IMG/VR virus record: IMGVR_UViG_2534681759_000012
Span: 1-43,160 of that record
Source: a virus
Taxonomy: Duplodnaviria > Heunggongvirae > Uroviricota > Caudoviricetes
DNA length: 43,160 nt
Reading direction: 5' to 3' (one strand)
Shown here: positions 28,848 through 35,193 of the stretch, one piece after another
How the letters are laid out: the number at the start of each line of letters is the position of its first letter
Position numbering within the stretch: position 1 is the first letter of the stretch
Made by a program: the position numbers and the translations under genes
Notes under the pieces: generated by a model
Seen by the model: the letters and a program-made list of their open reading frames with translations, nothing else
Told to the model about the DNA's origin: nothing
Databases searched by the model: none

Positions 28848-31328
28848 TCAGAATCCTCCTTTCTTCTTGGACTGCGGCTCCTCGCGTTCACGGCGGCGCA
28901 TTTCAGCAGACTGTTGGTCTGTGTCATAAATAGCGCCATTTGCCTGAATGCAATACACCGTGCCGGTATTGCCATGACGATTGAGACGAAGGATTAGTTC
29001 GGTTTCACCAGGTGGAACACTGTCATCAAAAGCACCTTCACGATGGATCCCCACCCAATAATCGCAATCCTGTTCAATCTGCCCTGTATCTCGTGAGTCA
29101 CTTGGTAATGGGCGTTTATTGGTTCGGCTTTCCAGTGCGCGGTTAAGCTGCGTCAGAAGCACAACAACGCAATCAAGCTCTTTGGCAAGGTTCTTCAGTC
29201 CTTTGGTGATCATGCCGTAAGCAAGGTCGTTGCGATCGGCCTTCTCAGCGGTCATTAGTGTCAGGTAATCGACCAGAATCATGCCAACACATCCTTTTTC
29301 TCGCTTGATTCGACGGCTTTCGCTGACGATTTGAGCCAGAGATAATCCCGGCGTGTCGTCGATGTAAAGCATGTCGATTTCACTCAAGCGATTGGCTGTT
29401 TCGATCGCCCTGTTGAAGTCACCATCGTAATCACCCTGATAGCCGTCATCGGCGTCATTTGTCGCCGGAAGGTAAAAAATATTCGGGTTAACACCAGACT
29501 TCTGCCCTACCAGTTTTTCCAGTATCTGGTCACCGGGCATTTCAAGGCTGAACATCAGAGCGGGCTTTTTCTCATGCACTGCGCAGTTGATTGCCATCTG
29601 GCTGTATAGCGTGGTGTTGTGGGTTAGAATGTATCCGTCAGTTGCATACAAATGTCTCTCGTGGGATACCATGATGCAAATGCACTCTTCACGTCCAATA
29701 TACTCAACCGACGTGATAACAGGCGCACTTGTTTTGATGCGTTTTGCAGTGAATTTTTGCTTCAGGCGTGGAGATTTTATGTGTGATAGAACCTCATCAG
29801 GCAACCTGATTGCGCAAATATGGGCATCCATACCTTTGCGCATTTCTCCCTTATAACTGAATTTCGGCTCCTGTTTGGTTGTCATACGACACACGCCACC
29901 AAGAGAATGCACCAGCCGCTTTACACCATCTGACAGGAACTTGCTTGCCGAGCTAAAGCGCAGGGCATTATTTCCTTCAACCCAACCATCGGTTTCAAGT
30001 AATCCGCATAGAACATCAATACGAGTTTGCTTATCAGCAGAAAAAATAATATCCGGGATAATTTTAATCTCTGACATCCGGCCGTAGATACCAAGCCGTT
30101 GCATAACCCGCGTAAGAGATAATTTGCGGCTAAACTTGTGAGATAGGGAGTAATCGCAGCCAGAAACATTTCTGACTTCAATATCGTCACCCACTTCAGA
30201 TCTTACTCGCTCAATGATGTATGGTTCCGTCATGCTGATTCGTGGCGTACCTGCAAGATTTCCATCGCCAAGTAACGCACCTAACAGCCATGGGCTAATC
30301 CCTAAATCAACAGGCAATCCGAAGTCACCGCTAATACCAGGAACATGAATGCGGCTTTGATAGCGAACGCATTCCATCATGTCCCGTAGGCGGCAGGTGT
30401 CTACAACATCAACGCCACCGGTAATACGGTTACTATGAATTTCCCACAAATGATCATCCGCGCAATCAACGGTTCTTCCGTCAGAGAACGTAACTCGGTA
30501 AATATCTCGCTCCCCTTGAGGAAAAACTCCAGACACGAATGATGGTTGTCCATCCACTGATGCTAGGGAATCTCCAACACATACGTCACGAAATGTTGTC
30601 CATGAACCATCAGCAAGCAAAATGCGTGAATTAAGCGGTTGCGCTTTCCCCATCTTAGGGCGAGCGCCAATGACAAACAGAGAGCCTTTCACCAGACCTT
30701 TCGGTGACAGCATCCTGTCCAGCGATGGGATCCCTGTGCTCATTCCTCGTTGTTCGCCTGACGGGTCAAATCGCTTCTCAAGGTCGCTAACCCAGTCTTC
30801 CATGACCTCACCAAATGAACGAAGGCCGCGACGCGATCCGGTTTTTGCATGGTCTGTCAGTTGCGTGAAAATCGACTGAATAGCTTCGTACTTCTGTGTT
30901 GCAGTCATTCCGTTGCGGGAATAGAGCAATTCCGTCGCTTCAGTCATGCGGTTGATGGCGTAGCGTTCCATTGCGGTTTCACGAACCTGCATTGCATAGG
31001 CAACGATGTTTGCTGCGCTTGGCGTGTTCTTTGCGATCTCAGCGATATAAGCAAAACCGCCAACAGACGCCGTTAACGATTTACGCTCCAGTTCATCGAA
31101 AAGCGTCAGGCCATCTACTGGCTTTTGCTCCCGGTGCATTCTGGTTATTTCTTCGAAAAGGATTTTGTGTGGTCGGCTGTAAAATGAGTCAGGCTTCAGC
31201 ATCGCCAGAACTTTCTGGACGCGCTCACTGCAGTCATCATCCAGAAGCAATCCACCAATCACCGCCTGCTCTGCCTCGATGCTATGGGGCGGCGCATAAA
31301 AATTATCGGTCATCGTGTTCACCCTCAC
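28848..31328 (-). CDS. Replicative DNA helicase (DnaB family) interrupted in-frame by an intein
   Basis: 826 aa; DnaB N-terminal domain (PHSIEAEQAVIGGLLLDD...), Walker A split as GARPKMGK / TTLYS by a 343-aa insertion, then DnaB motifs (LVDYLTLM, LLTQLNRALESR). Confidence 0.85.
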   Translation of the reverse strand: MRVNTMTDNFYAPPHSIEAEQAVIGGLLLDDDCSERVQKVLAMLKPDSFYSRPHKILFEEITRMHREQKPVDGLTLFDELERKSLTASVGGFAYIAEIAKNTPSAANIVAYAMQVRETAMERYAINRMTEATELLYSRNGMTATQKYEAIQSIFTQLTDHAKTGSRRGLRSFGEVMEDWVSDLEKRFDPSGEQRGMSTGIPSLDRMLSPKGLVKGSLFVIGARPKMGKAQPLNSRILLADGSWTTFRDVCVGDSLASVDGQPSFVSGVFPQGERDIYRVTFSDGRTVDCADDHLWEIHSNRITGGVDVVDTCRLRDMMECVRYQSRIHVPGISGDFGLPVDLGISPWLLGALLGDGNLAGTPRISMTEPYIIERVRSEVGDDIEVRNVSGCDYSLSHKFSRKLSLTRVMQRLGIYGRMSEIKIIPDIIFSADKQTRIDVLCGLLETDGWVEGNNALRFSSASKFLSDGVKRLVHSLGGVCRMTTKQEPKFSYKGEMRKGMDAHICAIRLPDEVLSHIKSPRLKQKFTAKRIKTSAPVITSVEYIGREECICIMVSHERHLYATDGYILTHNTTLYSQMAINCAVHEKKPALMFSLEMPGDQILEKLVGQKSGVNPNIFYLPATNDADDGYQGDYDGDFNRAIETANRLSEIDMLYIDDTPGLSLAQIVSESRRIKREKGCVGMILVDYLTLMTAEKADRNDLAYGMITKGLKNLAKELDCVVVLLTQLNRALESRTNKRPLPSDSRDTGQIEQDCDYWVGIHREGAFDDSVPPGETELILRLNRHGNTGTVYCIQANGAIYDTDQQSAEMRRREREEPQSKKKGGF
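29616..30644 (-). other. Intein with LAGLIDADG homing-endonuclease motifs inside the helicase P-loop
   Basis: Residues 229..571 of the helicase: starts with Ala (AQPLNSRILLADGSW...), ends ...YILTHN followed by Thr; two LAGLIDADG-like motifs (LGALLGDGNL and LCGLLETDGWVEG); removing it restores GARPKMGKTT. Confidence 0.75.
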
Positions 31329-32193
31329 GAACTTTCAGGTAGGTATTATCGTTAAGCAGGAAATCAAATCCCTTTTTGTGCCAGACGGTTCCGCGCTGAT
31401 GGTTTGGGCGCTCTTCGAACATCCATCGGCAATTTTCGCCTACGTAGCTCAAATAATTTCTCCAGTCCTGCATCGTGAACCCATGCCCGTCAAGCTGGCG
31501 GGTTATCACTCCGGCTTTGCGCCAGAACGTTCGGATCTGGTTTTTACGCTTGTCATTCAGTGCGCGGATTTTTGGCGCTTCAGGAAGGATTTCGTGGTAA
31601 GCATCGACAACATCCTGACAGCTAACGGAAGGTTTTTTCTTGTCAGACTTTTTGTCTGCTGCGGTACTCTCTAATACGTCAGTATTAGAGATATTATTTA
31701 TATTATTGTTTATGGACAACCGTTGGACAACCGTTGGACAATCTCCGCTGAGAGCCGCGCCATTACTGGTGTTTGCGTTGGACAACCGTTGGACAACCGT
31801 TGGACAATTTTTTGCCTGAAAATCGTCATATTTAACGATTGTAAACAGGCTAAATTTCTTCCCCATCGAGCAAATATTAAGCATCCCTTTCGACTCAAAA
31901 GTCCGCAATAAGCTCCGAACTTTGTTGTCGGGGATGAATGTTTCTCTGACCAGCGACGGGCGTCCAGTTATCATCTGACCGCGATCAACAGTTATCGGCC
32001 CGATATCCGTATTGACGACAGTAGATTCGTGATTAGCCTTGAGGATTAAGTGAAGCCAAAGATGTACTGCCTGAGAGTCCTTATAGAGCCTGCTGTCCAT
32101 AAACTGGCGGTGTATAGAGACATACCCCATACTGGATGCCTCCTGATGTTGTACAGGGTTATGCCTGTAATCAGCTAACTTAACGACGCCCAT
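31303..32193 (-). CDS. Replication initiator protein (lambda O-like)
   Basis: Position upstream of and overlapping the helicase gene; contains the iteron cluster and AT-rich tract inside its coding sequence (as ori-lambda sits in gene O); the true start may be internal. Confidence 0.7.
   Translation of the reverse strand: MGVVKLADYRHNPVQHQEASSMGYVSIHRQFMDSRLYKDSQAVHLWLHLILKANHESTVVNTDIGPITVDRGQMITGRPSLVRETFIPDNKVRSLLRTFESKGMLNICSMGKKFSLFTIVKYDDFQAKNCPTVVQRLSNANTSNGAALSGDCPTVVQRLSINNNINNISNTDVLESTAADKKSDKKKPSVSCQDVVDAYHEILPEAPKIRALNDKRKNQIRTFWRKAGVITRQLDGHGFTMQDWRNYLSYVGENCRWMFEERPNHQRGTVWHKKGFDFLLNDNTYLKVREGEHDDR
31711..31806. repeat. Origin of replication iterons (two clusters of about three tandem 11-bp GGACAACCGTT units) with adjacent AT-rich tract
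   Basis: Direct tandem repeats at 31713..31740 and 31775..31806 separated by ~35 bp, flanked by an AT-rich stretch (31683..31710), all within the O-like gene. Confidence 0.75.
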
Positions 32194-32375
32194 GTTTCAC
32201 TCCTGCTTTGGCTAGTCTGTAAACACCAACAAGGCGCTCTGCGAACGCCCTGTTATTTGCTGCGGCTACCACTAATCCCTCAGGTGAATCAGGGTGTCGA
32301 ATCTCTTCTTTTTCCTGGTATTTCTTACGACGTTTTGTCATAATTACTCCTGTGGATTGATCCAGTCTTTCTACA

Positions 32376-32657
32376 TCAGGCCTCGAAGAATTCGCCGTTC
32401 TTCGGGGCTTTTTCTTTTGTCAGGTAATCGGCAATCCGCTTAGTCAATTCAGCCATTTCATCGTCTTCGATTCCGTATTCCAGAACAGCCAGCATCATGC
32501 TTACCTGCGAGAAGAAACCATTCTTCCATCGGCTTACCTGATATTCAGGAACCCCCATTGCTCGAGCGAATGCCTTCTGCCCCATCAGTGCCAGTTTGTT
32601 CAGCAAGGCTGACTCGATGCGAGCCGCTTTCTTGCTTTTAGTTGCAATAGTACCCAT
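32376..32657 (-). CDS. cII: Transcriptional activator CII-like
   Basis: 93 aa; homologous to lambda CII in the HTH region (ARIESALLNK...QVSRWK...SMMLAVLEYG); located between cro/nutR and the O-like gene. Confidence 0.8.
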   Translation of the reverse strand: MGTIATKSKKAARIESALLNKLALMGQKAFARAMGVPEYQVSRWKNGFFSQVSMMLAVLEYGIEDDEMAELTKRIADYLTKEKAPKNGEFFEA

Positions 32658-32733
32658 AGATAATTTCCTTAATGATTAGATAGAGTTGGCTTCGCAAAGA
32701 AACGCAAAACCATAGAGATTTGTTTCTGGTAAT

Positions 32734-32765
32734 GCCCTTTTTCAGGGCGGGGATGTGTAAGAGCG
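32734..32765 (-). promoter_or_regulatory. nutR site (boxA and boxB)
   Basis: Minus-strand boxA CGCTCTTACAC and boxB hairpin GCCCTGAAAAAGGGC, matching lambda nutR as recalled, just downstream of cro. Confidence 0.8.
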
Positions 32766-32773
32766 TTAATAAC

Positions 32774-33004
32774 TTAAGCGGCCATTAATTCAGGCCAGAT
32801 GCTTTCCCAATCAACCGGATGAAGGTCTTTGCGAGTCACTTCACCATTGCTGAACTTCTCAATCAGAACACAAAGTGCTGCGCCCAATTCATGATTACGG
32901 CTAAGTGCTTTCCTCAAATAGCCGATAGAAGTTCCGCACTTGGTGGCAAATTCTCTCTGCTCTTCCAGTGAAAGGGAGTTCAGATACAAGCGGAGTTCTT
33001 CCAT
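32774..33004 (-). CDS. cro: Cro-like repressor (HTH)
   Basis: 76-aa HTH protein transcribed divergently from cI across an operator region. Confidence 0.7.
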   Translation of the reverse strand: MEELRLYLNSLSLEEQREFATKCGTSIGYLRKALSRNHELGAALCVLIEKFSNGEVTRKDLHPVDWESIWPELMAA

Positions 33005-33038
33005 TTGCTATCTCCTTCCCGTTGTTGAATAAGATGAG

Positions 33039-33094
33039 TTTACCTGTAGGTAAAAAGCAAATCAATACCCATAGGTTATTTACCGGCAGGTAAT
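33039..33094. promoter_or_regulatory. Right operator region OR (at least two TTACC-N4-GGTAA sites) with divergent pRM/pR
   Basis: Inverted-repeat sites TTTACCTGTAGGTAAA (33039..33054) and ATTTACCGGCAGGTAAT (33078..33094) between the cro and cI starts. Confidence 0.65.
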
Positions 33095-33112
33095 CAAAGA
33101 TAGAATTAAATC

Positions 33113-33799
33113 ATGGATAAATACGAACAAAGACGACTAAGGCTGATAGAGATAAGAGACCGATTCTGTAATGGAAAGGCCTCAGAGTTGGCTCGTCGAA
33201 TAGAAAGGGAACCATCATACGTTTCCAGAATGCTGTATCCGGAAGGAAAAAGCGGAAAAAAACGCATTGCTGACGATATGATGGAACTAATTGAAAAATC
33301 TTTTAATCTCCCACGCGGATGGATGGACATGCTTGCAGATGGTAAAGCTGGAGCTACGGACCATCTTGAGTTTGCGGGTAACGTTCGTGCGGGTTTTGTT
33401 CCGGTAATTGGTGAAGCCGTTTTGGGAGTTGATGGCTCAGTGGATATGATTGAATTCAGATCCGGTTGGTTAAGCATCTACAGCGGCGATAAAGATGCTT
33501 ACGGTCTGAAGGTTAAGGGTGACAGCATGTGGCCAAGGATTCAGTCAGGAGAATATGTTGTTATTGAACCAAATACGCCAGTACATCCAGGTGATGAAGT
33601 CTTTGTAAGGACCAAAGACGGTCACAACATGATAAAGATCATGAACAAAACAAGAGACGGTGATTATCAGTTTAGTAGCATAAACAGTGATCACCGCCCA
33701 ATCACTCTTCCTGTTGAAGAAGTTGATAAAATGCATTTTGTTTCAGCTATTGTGAAACACACCAGGTACGTAGACCAGGACGATCTGCCAAAAGTTTGA
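33113..33799 (+). CDS. cI: Prophage repressor CI (HTH plus LexA-like S24 autopeptidase domain)
   Basis: 228 aa; N-terminal HTH (ASELARRIEREPSYVSRML); C-terminal S24-type motifs (KVKGDSMWPRIQSGEYVVIE, KIMNK); not lambda immunity. Confidence 0.85.
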   Translation: MDKYEQRRLRLIEIRDRFCNGKASELARRIEREPSYVSRMLYPEGKSGKKRIADDMMELIEKSFNLPRGWMDMLADGKAGATDHLEFAGNVRAGFVPVIGEAVLGVDGSVDMIEFRSGWLSIYSGDKDAYGLKVKGDSMWPRIQSGEYVVIEPNTPVHPGDEVFVRTKDGHNMIKIMNKTRDGDYQFSSINSDHRPITLPVEEVDKMHFVSAIVKHTRYVDQDDLPKV

Positions 33800-34110
33800 G
33801 GATAAAGCAGCAAATGTTTATACCCGGCATAGTAGTCGCTGTTGTAATCATCTGCTTCATATGGGCAAAGTTATCTCCTGTAAGCTCTAAGCATACAGCT
33901 GAACTCATGAGGAAGAAGAATCTTATACATGAGGCAGAATCGATAATTAAAAAGTTCAAAGGCATGTCATACGACGACATGTCATCAGAGCAGATTGCTA
34001 TGTATAAATGCGCCATTGAGCGCCTTGACTACTTAAACGGACTCAAACCCAAACACACCCCAGTAGAATCAAAATTGCCGCAATGGCCAAGCAATCCAAA
34101 TAGCTTCTGA
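33796..34110 (+). CDS. Small single-pass membrane protein co-transcribed with cI (in the lambda rexAB position)
   Basis: 104 aa with one N-terminal TM helix (FIPGIVVAVVIICFIWAKL); start overlaps the cI stop; followed by a strong terminator before OL/pL. Confidence 0.6.
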   Translation: MRIKQQMFIPGIVVAVVIICFIWAKLSPVSSKHTAELMRKKNLIHEAESIIKKFKGMSYDDMSSEQIAMYKCAIERLDYLNGLKPKHTPVESKLPQWPSNPNSF

Positions 34111-34121
34111 CATCTCCTTTC

Positions 34122-34143
34122 AGCCCGCAAAGCGGGCTTTTTT
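34122..34143 (+). terminator. Rho-independent terminator ending the cI operon (tImm-like)
   Basis: AGCCCGC-AAA-GCGGGCT hairpin followed by TTTTT, 12 bp after the 104-aa ORF stop. Confidence 0.8.
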
Positions 34144-34206
34144 ATATCAATCCAAAAAATTAATTACCTGAAAATTCAAGCAGGTAAACTCTCACATCAA
34201 TTTTAT

Positions 34207-34248
34207 TTACCTGCAGGTATAGACAGGGGTTTTACCTGTAGGTATATT
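34207..34248 (+). promoter_or_regulatory. Left operator OL sites overlapping candidate pL
   Basis: Operator repeats TTACCTGCAGGTAT (34207..34220) and TTACCTGTAGGTAT (34232..34245), same half-sites as OR; candidate -35 TAGACA (34220..34225) and -10 TATATT (34243..34248) directed toward N. Confidence 0.55.
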
Positions 34249-34288
34249 TTAAGCCATCAGCAGGACGCACTGACCACCATGAAGGTGA

Positions 34289-34319
34289 CGCTCTTAAAAA
34301 TTAAGCCCTGAAGAAGGGC
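34289..34319 (+). promoter_or_regulatory. nutL site (boxA and boxB)
   Basis: boxA CGCTCTTAA and boxB hairpin GCCCTGAAGAAGGGC, matching lambda nutL as recalled, between pL and N. Confidence 0.85.
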
Positions 34320-34587
34320 AGCATTCAAAGCAGAAGGCTTTGGGGTGTGGTGAAGCCAGCTAGTCACTGGCAAGTGCTTACCTACTGTTGAGCGGTGAAG
34401 CGCTCCCAACGCTAGCAATAGCGTGGACGAGATGGGGAGCCGCGGGCGATAAGGCCGCCATAACGCGCACGTTGTCGCATGGAAAAATCGCTGGGGTGCC
34501 GGTTATACCCCTCCGAATGAGACTCAACAAGCTGGAGCTAGACTACCAGCCACCACACCGCCAAAGCTAACTGACAGGAGAATCCAG

Positions 34588-34914
34588 ATGGATGCACAAA
34601 CACGCCGCCGCGAACGTCGCGCAGAGAAACAGGCTCAATGGAAAGCAGCAAATCCCCTGTTGGTTGGGGTAAGCGCAAAACCAGTTAACCGCCCTATTCT
34701 CTCGCTGAATCGCAAACCGAAATCACGAGTAGAAAGCGCACTGAATCCGATAGACCTTACGGTGCTGGCTGAATACCACGAACAGATTGAAAGCAACCTG
34801 CAACGTATTGAGCGCAAGAATCAGCGCACATGGTACAGCAAGCCACGCAGTGAAATGGGTGTGACTTGTGTTGGTCGCCAGAAAATGAAATTAGGCAGCA
34901 AACCACTTATTTGA
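34588..34914 (+). CDS. N: Antiterminator N (lambda-type)
   Basis: 108 aa beginning MDAQTRRRERRAEKQAQWKAANPLLVGVSAKPVNRPILSLNRKPKSRVESALNPIDLTVLAEYH, matching lambda N as recalled; C-terminus diverges slightly. Confidence 0.9.
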   Translation: MDAQTRRRERRAEKQAQWKAANPLLVGVSAKPVNRPILSLNRKPKSRVESALNPIDLTVLAEYHEQIESNLQRIERKNQRTWYSKPRSEMGVTCVGRQKMKLGSKPLI

Positions 34915-34992
34915 GGTGAGATATGGAAGAAGAATTTGAAGAGTTCGAAGAGCATCCGCAGGATGTGATGGAACAATACCAGGACTATCCTT

Positions 34993-35193
34993 ATGACTAC
35001 TACTATTGATAAAAATCAATGGTGTGGACAATTCAAGCGATGCAATGGATGCAAGCTGCAATCGGAATGCATGGTTAAGCCTGAAGAAATGTTTCCTGTA
35101 ATGGAAGATGGGAAATATGTCGATAAATGGGCAATACGAACGACGGCAATGATTGCCAGAGAACTTGGTAAACAGAACAACAAGGCTGCCTGA
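34993..35193 (+). CDS. Hypothetical Cys-rich small protein (66 aa)
   Basis: ORF downstream of N with CxxxxxxCxxC...C pattern; no family recognised. Confidence 0.4.
   Translation: MTTTIDKNQWCGQFKRCNGCKLQSECMVKPEEMFPVMEDGKYVDKWAIRTTAMIARELGKQNNKAA

Follow-up and report, generated by a model that had tools for sequence, protein, structure and literature searches.

An immunity region of predicted mEp043 specificity within the lambda-type N/nut early-transcription circuit of a P22/Sf6-like temperate coliphage

We analyzed the immunity region of a tailed-phage genome (Caudoviricetes; IMG/VR virus record IMGVR_UViG_2534681759_000012), for which the whole 43,160-nt stretch served as the window; the map of the region is reversed relative to the lambda map. 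The repressor gene cI and the gene for the helix-turn-helix (HTH) protein Cro are divergent and separated by a 108-bp control region. Downstream of cI lie an accessory open reading frame (ORF) of 98 amino acids (aa), a terminator, a second control region with the promoter pL, and the antiterminator gene N, whereas cII lies beyond cro on the other side. Sites nutL and nutR, with the boxA and boxB of lambda, were found downstream of pL and pR. The initial annotation had described a hybrid in which a lambda-identical antitermination module is combined with a heteroimmune repressor pair and its own operators. Our data allow us to conclude with high confidence that this is an immunity region of mEp043 specificity, as predicted from sequence, which a P22/Sf6-like temperate coliphage or prophage carries within a lambda-type N/nut early-transcription circuit.

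The block from cII to N (32332-34940) is 98.8% identical to the DNA of coliphage mEp043 (JQ182734 / NC_019706 / PV340537), and the homology stops at both ends. By tblastn, cI and Cro are the same proteins as those of mEp043 (228/228 and 76/76 aa, respectively). N is 99% identical to mEp043 N, and cII is 98% identical to mEp043 cII, compared with 49% to both lambda cII and P22 C1. OR1, OR2, OR3 and OL1 are identical in the two phages and OL2 differs in two central bases only (34213-14). Together with 33058 and 34226-30, these are the only control-region differences; they fall on central or spacer positions and leave the half-sites unchanged. Phage mEp043 comes from the collection of Kameyama et al. 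(1999) and is reported to belong to an immunity group other than those of lambda, HK022 and further phages (PMC3442831; PMC9836094). By this comparison the immunity region is already known, being a near-identical copy of the sequenced and phenotypically typed mEp043 region. Its superinfection immunity should be that of mEp043, unlike that of lambda, 434, P22, HK022 or 933W. The proposal of an immunity specificity unlike lambda's inside a lambda-like circuit is thus supported, with the qualification that mEp043 would already represent this specificity.

The full region was present at an identity of at least 99% in 52 of 5426 complete E. coli genomes, and the 90%-identity cluster of cI is recorded on 743 contigs, with a representative that is one residue off the window protein. 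A lambda-red-type prophage of E. coli MB19 also carries the cassette.

The repressor pair is distinct from that of lambda, as had been suggested: searches of cI and Cro against lambda, 434, P22 and HK022 gave no tblastn match better than E=0.17. The operators do not match lambda either, whose sites are of the TATCACCGC type. With at most one mismatch allowed, TTACCNNNNGGTAA occurs at four sites in the window (33040-53, 33080-93, 34207-20 and 34232-45). All four lie inside the two control regions and none elsewhere in the window, which is the outcome of the motif search that the initial annotation had called for. Shuffled sequences contained 0.58 sites on average, and four were reached in 0 of 100 shuffles; an unbiased repeat search returned the same four sites as its top family. 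The four or more inverted repeats noted across OR and OL were recovered, and a weaker OR2 and a split element add to them. TTACC-N4-GGTAA is absent from the immunity regions of lambda, 434, HK022, P22, phi24B (933W-type) and mEp506. In total, the 108-bp region holds a tripartite OR of three 14-bp operators with the core T-TACC-N4-GGTA-A, and two more operators overlap pL.

These operators are arranged around the promoters (Table 1). OR1 is centred at about -16.5 relative to the inferred start of pR (about 33030) and at -66.5 relative to the pRM start, and OR2 is centred at -41.5 relative to the latter. At OL, the start of the pL transcript (34256) was set by identity with lambda, which places the centres of OL1 and OL2 at -17.5 and -42.5. 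Several bases serve an operator and a promoter at once. The pR -35 hexamer begins with position 1 of OR2, the pL -10 hexamer with the TAT of OL1, and the pL -35 hexamer, TAGACA, with the T that ends OL2; GGTATAGACA is unchanged in eight relatives. The departures of the operators from the palindrome, including GGTAT at OL, are accounted for by this overlap with promoter hexamers. The pRM -10 hexamer ends 6 nt ahead of the cI ATG at 33113, where transcription is predicted to start, so that a leaderless cI mRNA is expected. The layout is that of a lambdoid switch, with divergent cI and cro around a multi-site OR that covers pR and pRM, and with OL over pL.

Table 1. Coordinates of genes, operators, promoters and RNA features in and around the immunity region
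Feature	Coordinates	Strand	Basis or remark
cII (93 aa)	32376..32657	-	Pfam Phage_CII, E=2e-30
Putative cII-binding site TTGC-N6-TTGC, TTGCTTTTAGTTGC (pRE -35 region), pointing towards cI	32632..32645	+	Sequence; mEp043 carries such an annotation
nutR: boxA CGCTCTTA (32758-65), boxB GCCCTGAAAAAGGGC (32734-48)	32734..32765	-	boxA and boxB as in lambda nutR; spacer 2 bases off
cro (76 aa, HTH protein)	32774..33004	-	PHROG 35, transcriptional repressor, E=7.5e-16
Putative pR: -35 TTGATT (33065-60), 17-nt spacer, -10 TAAACT (33042-37)	33037..33065	-	Read by eye; inferred
OR1, TTACCTGTAGGTAA	33040..33053		Exact palindrome; position kept in 8 prophages
OR2, ATACCCATAGGTTA, weak, 2 mismatches (ATACC-N4-GGTTA)	33065..33078		OR1 + 25 bp
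Putative pRM: -35 TTTACC, 16-nt spacer, -10 TAGAAT	33079..33106	+	Promoter scan, 9/12
OR3, TTACCGGCAGGTAA	33080..33093		Exact palindrome; overlaps pRM -35 hexamer
cI repressor (228 aa): HTH N-terminal domain, disordered linker, S24 C-terminal domain	33113..33799	+	Peptidase_S24 (PF00717), E=1.4e-17
98-aa predicted membrane protein, N-terminal hydrophobic helix, cI operon	33814..34110 (alternative TTG start 33796)	+	ORF list; PHROG 10450, function unknown
Intrinsic terminator of the cI operon	34122..34145	+	7-pair stem (6 GC), then T run
Split element TTACC-N14-GGTAA	34164..34187		43 bp upstream of OL2
OL2, TTACCTGCAGGTAT	34207..34220		Motif search, at most 1 mismatch
pL: -35 TAGACA, 17-nt spacer, -10 TATATT	34220..34248	+	Promoter scan, 10/12; annotated in mEp043
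OL1, TTACCTGTAGGTAT	34232..34245		Motif search, at most 1 mismatch; overlaps pL -10 hexamer
nutL: boxA CGCTCTTA (34289-96), boxB GCCCTGAAGAAGGGC (34305-19)	34289..34319	+	Identical to lambda
N-leader long hairpin; closing stem lambda-like (GGCUUUGGGGUGUG... / ...CACACCGCCAAAGC), interior replaced, ~105 nt longer	34336..34567	+	Alignment
N antiterminator (108 aa)	34588..34914	+	Pfam N36, E=1.5e-26

We further compared the region with ten related prophage loci whose cI is 54-85% identical. They came from Enterobacter, Cronobacter, a metagenome, Pantoea, Ewingella, a gammaproteobacterial metagenome-assembled genome (MAG), Hafnia, Yersinia and Rahnella. The eight loci with the cI helix SYVSRML, which contain 40 sites, were used as the footprint set. 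Their architecture is fixed: OR1 is followed by OR2 after 25 bp and by OR3 after another 15 bp, and OL2 by OL1 after 25 bp; the centre-to-centre distance of 15 bp between OR2 and OR3 and that of 25 bp between OL1 and OL2 hold in all relatives. All 40 sites have TACC at positions 2-5 and GGT at positions 10-12, with variable flanks and a variable centre of 4 bp. This footprint reveals OR2, which the initial annotation had not listed and whose position and both deviations are the same in all eight relatives.

In Yersinia and Rahnella, helix 3 reads SVISRML instead of SYVSRML in cI and VEYLRKA instead of IGYLRKA in Cro, and TACT/AGTA takes the place of the TACC/GGTA half-sites at unchanged positions. 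Because the half-sites covary with both recognition helices, the comparison points to cI and Cro as the proteins that read these sites. A contig scan for further cI relatives gave 13 loci, half of them with a swapped N-terminal domain, which were used as negative controls. The loci that share the C-terminal domain and carry another N-terminal domain (Citrobacter, Erwinia, Photorhabdus and Y. artesiana) have unrelated palindromes. As a separate observation, the first bases of the pL transcript (CCATCAGCAGGACGC), just after OL1, are kept across genera (L010-L016 and L018), also in loci with other N and nut types downstream, which fits a recombination junction conserved at the edge of the immunity region.

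The cI protein is a two-domain repressor, with an HTH N-terminal domain and a self-cleaving C-terminal domain of the LexA/S24 type. Its AlphaFold2 model (pLDDT, the predicted local distance difference test score, 77.8) contains a confident helical N-terminal domain (pLDDT about 90), with the HTH at residues 23-40 formed by helices at 23-29 and 34-40, the latter being helix 3 (SYVSRML), and a disordered linker at 75-93. The best fold matches of the model in the PDB were the lambda cI C-terminal domain with its cleavage region (2hnf), LexA and 186 CI, with full-length lambda cI (3bdn) also among the matches. A PDB sequence-profile search connected the C-terminal domain with UmuD and LexA and gave insignificant matches only (E about 0.3) for the N-terminal domain, in which Pfam did not recover the HTH. 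Ser138 and Lys175 align with the catalytic dyad and are invariant in the alignment. Lambda Ala111-Gly112 aligns with Leu104-Gly105 of cI, as in 933W cI, and Leu104-Gly105 (window 33422-33427) is the predicted self-cleavage site; in eight aligned relatives, position 104 is L or M and Gly105 is invariant. The dipeptide is thus Leu-Gly instead of the usual Ala-Gly, and the same is seen in 933W-type cI. On the basis of the alignment, 933W cI would be cleaved at Leu-Gly; a report of this cleavage was sought in open papers and not found.

By sequence comparison, the antitermination circuit that flanks the heteroimmune cI/cro/operator cassette is of the lambda N/nut type. The claim that this module is lambda-identical was borne out in part. 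It stood for the initial 95 nt of the pL leader with nutL (34252 to about 34345 in the alignment), for boxA and boxB of nutR, and for N residues 1-64, which include the arginine-rich boxB-binding motif of lambda N. It did not stand for the nutR spacer, for the C-terminal 44 residues of N, where all differences from lambda N are located (90.7% overall identity), or for the interior of the N leader. Coordinates 32734 and 34319, between which the initial annotation had placed the region, are the exact outer ends of the nutR and nutL boxB elements.

The hairpin of the N leader in lambda is a structure processed by RNase III. The window leader folds at -110.4 kcal/mol (z = -3.55), and mEp043 has this variant too; in mEp506, the closing stem is unchanged but the interior is a different one, and the MB19 prophage has the short lambda N leader, ~96 nt shorter than that of the window. 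Since the lambda closing stem is kept and mEp043 shares the variant, we read the leader as a variant of the known N-leader hairpin, and the idea of a novel RNA was rejected. Rfam returned nothing credible for the whole window at gathering thresholds or for 32200-35000 at E up to 1.

Taken together, these features suggest how the switch would work. In the lysogen, cI dimers on OR1 and on OL1 and OL2 would block pR and pL. Binding of cI to the weak OR2, centred at -41.5, would activate pRM, producing a leaderless mRNA for cI and the 98-aa ORF, and binding to the perfect OR3 over the pRM -35 hexamer would lead to auto-repression. RecA-stimulated cleavage of cI, predicted at Leu104-Gly105, would cause prophage induction, after which Cro would bind the same sites and shut pRM. 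N, through its lambda-type arginine-rich motif, would act on the nutL and nutR of the pL and pR transcripts.

Several points weigh against this scheme. OR2 and OR3 are 15 bp apart centre-to-centre, so that joint occupancy, and with it a lambda-like division into OR2 activation and OR3 repression, may not hold. The covariation of half-sites and recognition helices represents a single lineage event. The pR promoter was placed by eye, matches only 8 of 12 consensus positions and is below the scanner threshold. In the literature searched, we found no binding, footprinting or transcription data for the cassette, nor mapped operators of mEp043. Finally, the 933W repressor binds non-cooperatively, and its phage is without OL3 (PMC5977221). 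As 933W has the closest studied repressor, lambda-style cooperativity and looping are not assured here.

The spacing and the split element lead to the strongest alternative, in which the switch is wired differently from that of lambda. OR2 and OR3 would then be mutually exclusive, a strong OR3 would keep pRM largely auto-repressed, as it does in 933W and BAA2326, and cI would bind the split element as a distal site for OL-OR looping. A perfect OR3 beside the weakest OR2 is kept in all relatives, and strong OR3 occupancy has a precedent in 933W (PMC5977221). The half-sites of the split element are invariant in the window, mEp043, Enterobacter, Cronobacter, the metagenome, Pantoea and Hafnia, with a variable inner 14 bp. 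Its left half is TTACT in Yersinia and Rahnella, alongside operators of the TTACT type, and these loci have a full OL3-like site 23 bp upstream of OL2. The split element, whose half-sites are one helical turn further apart, may be an OL3 that is distal or degenerate.

Against this, Ewingella and the MAG locus lack GGTAA as the right half, and the different wiring is a matter of sequence inference. The inner ATTCAA after an A-rich tract also resembles the core of sites for integration host factor (IHF). The IHF core is WATCAA, an IHF-type site lies upstream of lambda pL, and the split element may be a site of this kind. Examined by eye as a promoter, it offered no acceptable hexamer pair on either strand, and this candidate was rejected. 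On balance, we regard a wiring unlike lambda's as possible yet unlikely. A somewhat more doubtful claim is the general one that a widespread enterobacterial cI/Cro family runs a switch wired unlike lambda's, with a perfect OR3 abutting a weak OR2 and a distal split OL element. If cI binds the split element, this would imply either an unusual tolerance of half-site spacing or an architecture of looping that has not been described among lambdoid repressors.

We also considered whether this is a 933W-type (Shiga-toxin-phage) immunity region that shares the operators and immunity of 933W. The GenBank note of mEp043 reads 'similar to repressor protein CI of 933W'. The window cI is 49% identical to cI of 933W, phi24B and mEp506 over residues 11-221; they share Leu-Gly at the predicted site of cleavage, and the surroundings of the catalytic residues are near-identical. 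However, the N-terminal DNA-binding domains align poorly and unconvincingly, the phi24B record annotates CGTACTTTCAGTACG-like operators, with no TTACC-N4-GGTAA at that locus, and Cro has no match in 933W-type phages. A 933W-type immunity is already refuted at the sequence level and highly improbable. It is equally improbable that the palindromes are chance repeats or sites of another factor, with the true operators elsewhere: although Pfam missed the HTH of cI, they are enriched and confined to the two promoter regions, their positions and half-sites are invariant across genera amid diverging DNA, the half-sites change along with the recognition helices of cI and Cro and vanish upon the N-terminal domain swap, and AlphaFold2 places an HTH in a confident helical domain. 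The preferred reading remains an mEp043-specificity region whose palindromes are predicted to be read by cI and Cro.

The 98-aa ORF is co-oriented with cI, precedes the terminator and lies where lambda has rexAB and 434 has hex. It gave no Pfam or PADLOC match, is labelled hypothetical in mEp043, and is left unannotated in MB19 by PGAP (the Prokaryotic Genome Annotation Pipeline). We regard it as a candidate exclusion or conversion gene expressed in the lysogen.

Other features were observed in the vicinity. A terminator-like hairpin of 14 pairs (32378-32410, + strand), antisense to the 3' end of cII, occupies the position of the lambda oop RNA terminator. Just 3' of N lies a Ral antirestriction gene (34993-35193, + strand; Pfam Ral, E=1.6e-48), a lambda-like layout, whereas mEp043 has other genes there. 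On the cII side, an O-like gene (31303-32193, - strand), whose product has no Pfam match, contains about six 11-bp iterons (TGGACAACCGT) at 31702-31819, in two clusters of three that are 66 bp apart; the array is probably the replication origin. The gene for a DnaB-like replicative helicase (28848-31328, - strand; 826 aa) has DnaB_C in two stretches around a LAGLIDADG-type insert, compared with 478 aa for the MB19 homologue, and the helicase probably carries an intein.

Placing the prophage in the mEp043 immunity group predicts which phages it would exclude, and has little significance beyond annotation. The case is one of textbook modular exchange, the same cI/cro/operator unit being found in the siphovirus mEp043, in the P22-like podovirus of the window and in the MB19 prophage, and beside other N types in other genera. 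In the literature searched, the comparative operator map (consensus, three OR sites, promoter overlaps and predicted Leu-Gly cleavage site) appears to be the first explicit one, and it could inform work that employs the cassette as an orthogonal repressor/operator pair.

Among known systems, mEp043 is the nearest. It shares the whole cII-cro-cI-orf98-OL/pL-nutL-N block and the variant N leader, and differs by the substitutions in the OL1-OL2 spacer and the OL2 centre. Outside the block, the window has the mosaic make-up of a P22/Sf6-like podovirus (IME10, Dewey, vB_EcoP-683R2), and its replication genes, including the DnaB gene with the probable intein, differ from those of mEp043.

With lambda, the region shares the gene order cII-nutR-cro-OR-cI-(accessory)-OL/pL-nutL-N, a tripartite OR, a cII site at pRE and, by prediction, a leaderless cI mRNA. 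The lambda operator centres (OR1 -66 and OR2 -42 from pRM; OL1 -17 and OL2 -41 from pL) are close to those of the window, and the junction of lambda homology is exactly the pL transcript start. In contrast to the 17-bp operators of lambda, those of the window are 14 bp long, OR2 and OR3 are spaced by 15 bp instead of 23, a canonical OL3 is absent, and the 98-aa ORF takes the place of rexAB. Divergence from lambda is also seen in the C-terminal third of N and inside the N leader. Besides the lambda immunity region itself, the classic lambda imm434 and imm21 hybrids are among the closest known systems, and we regard the region as a natural "imm-swap" hybrid. Of the repressors studied experimentally, the closest is the 933W/phi24B cI of the Koudelka laboratory, with a homologous S24 domain and an identity that lies mostly in the C-terminal domain. 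These phages differ from the window in the N-terminal domain, the operators and the OR spacing, their Cro is unrelated, and 933W has two clear OL operators (PMC5977221).

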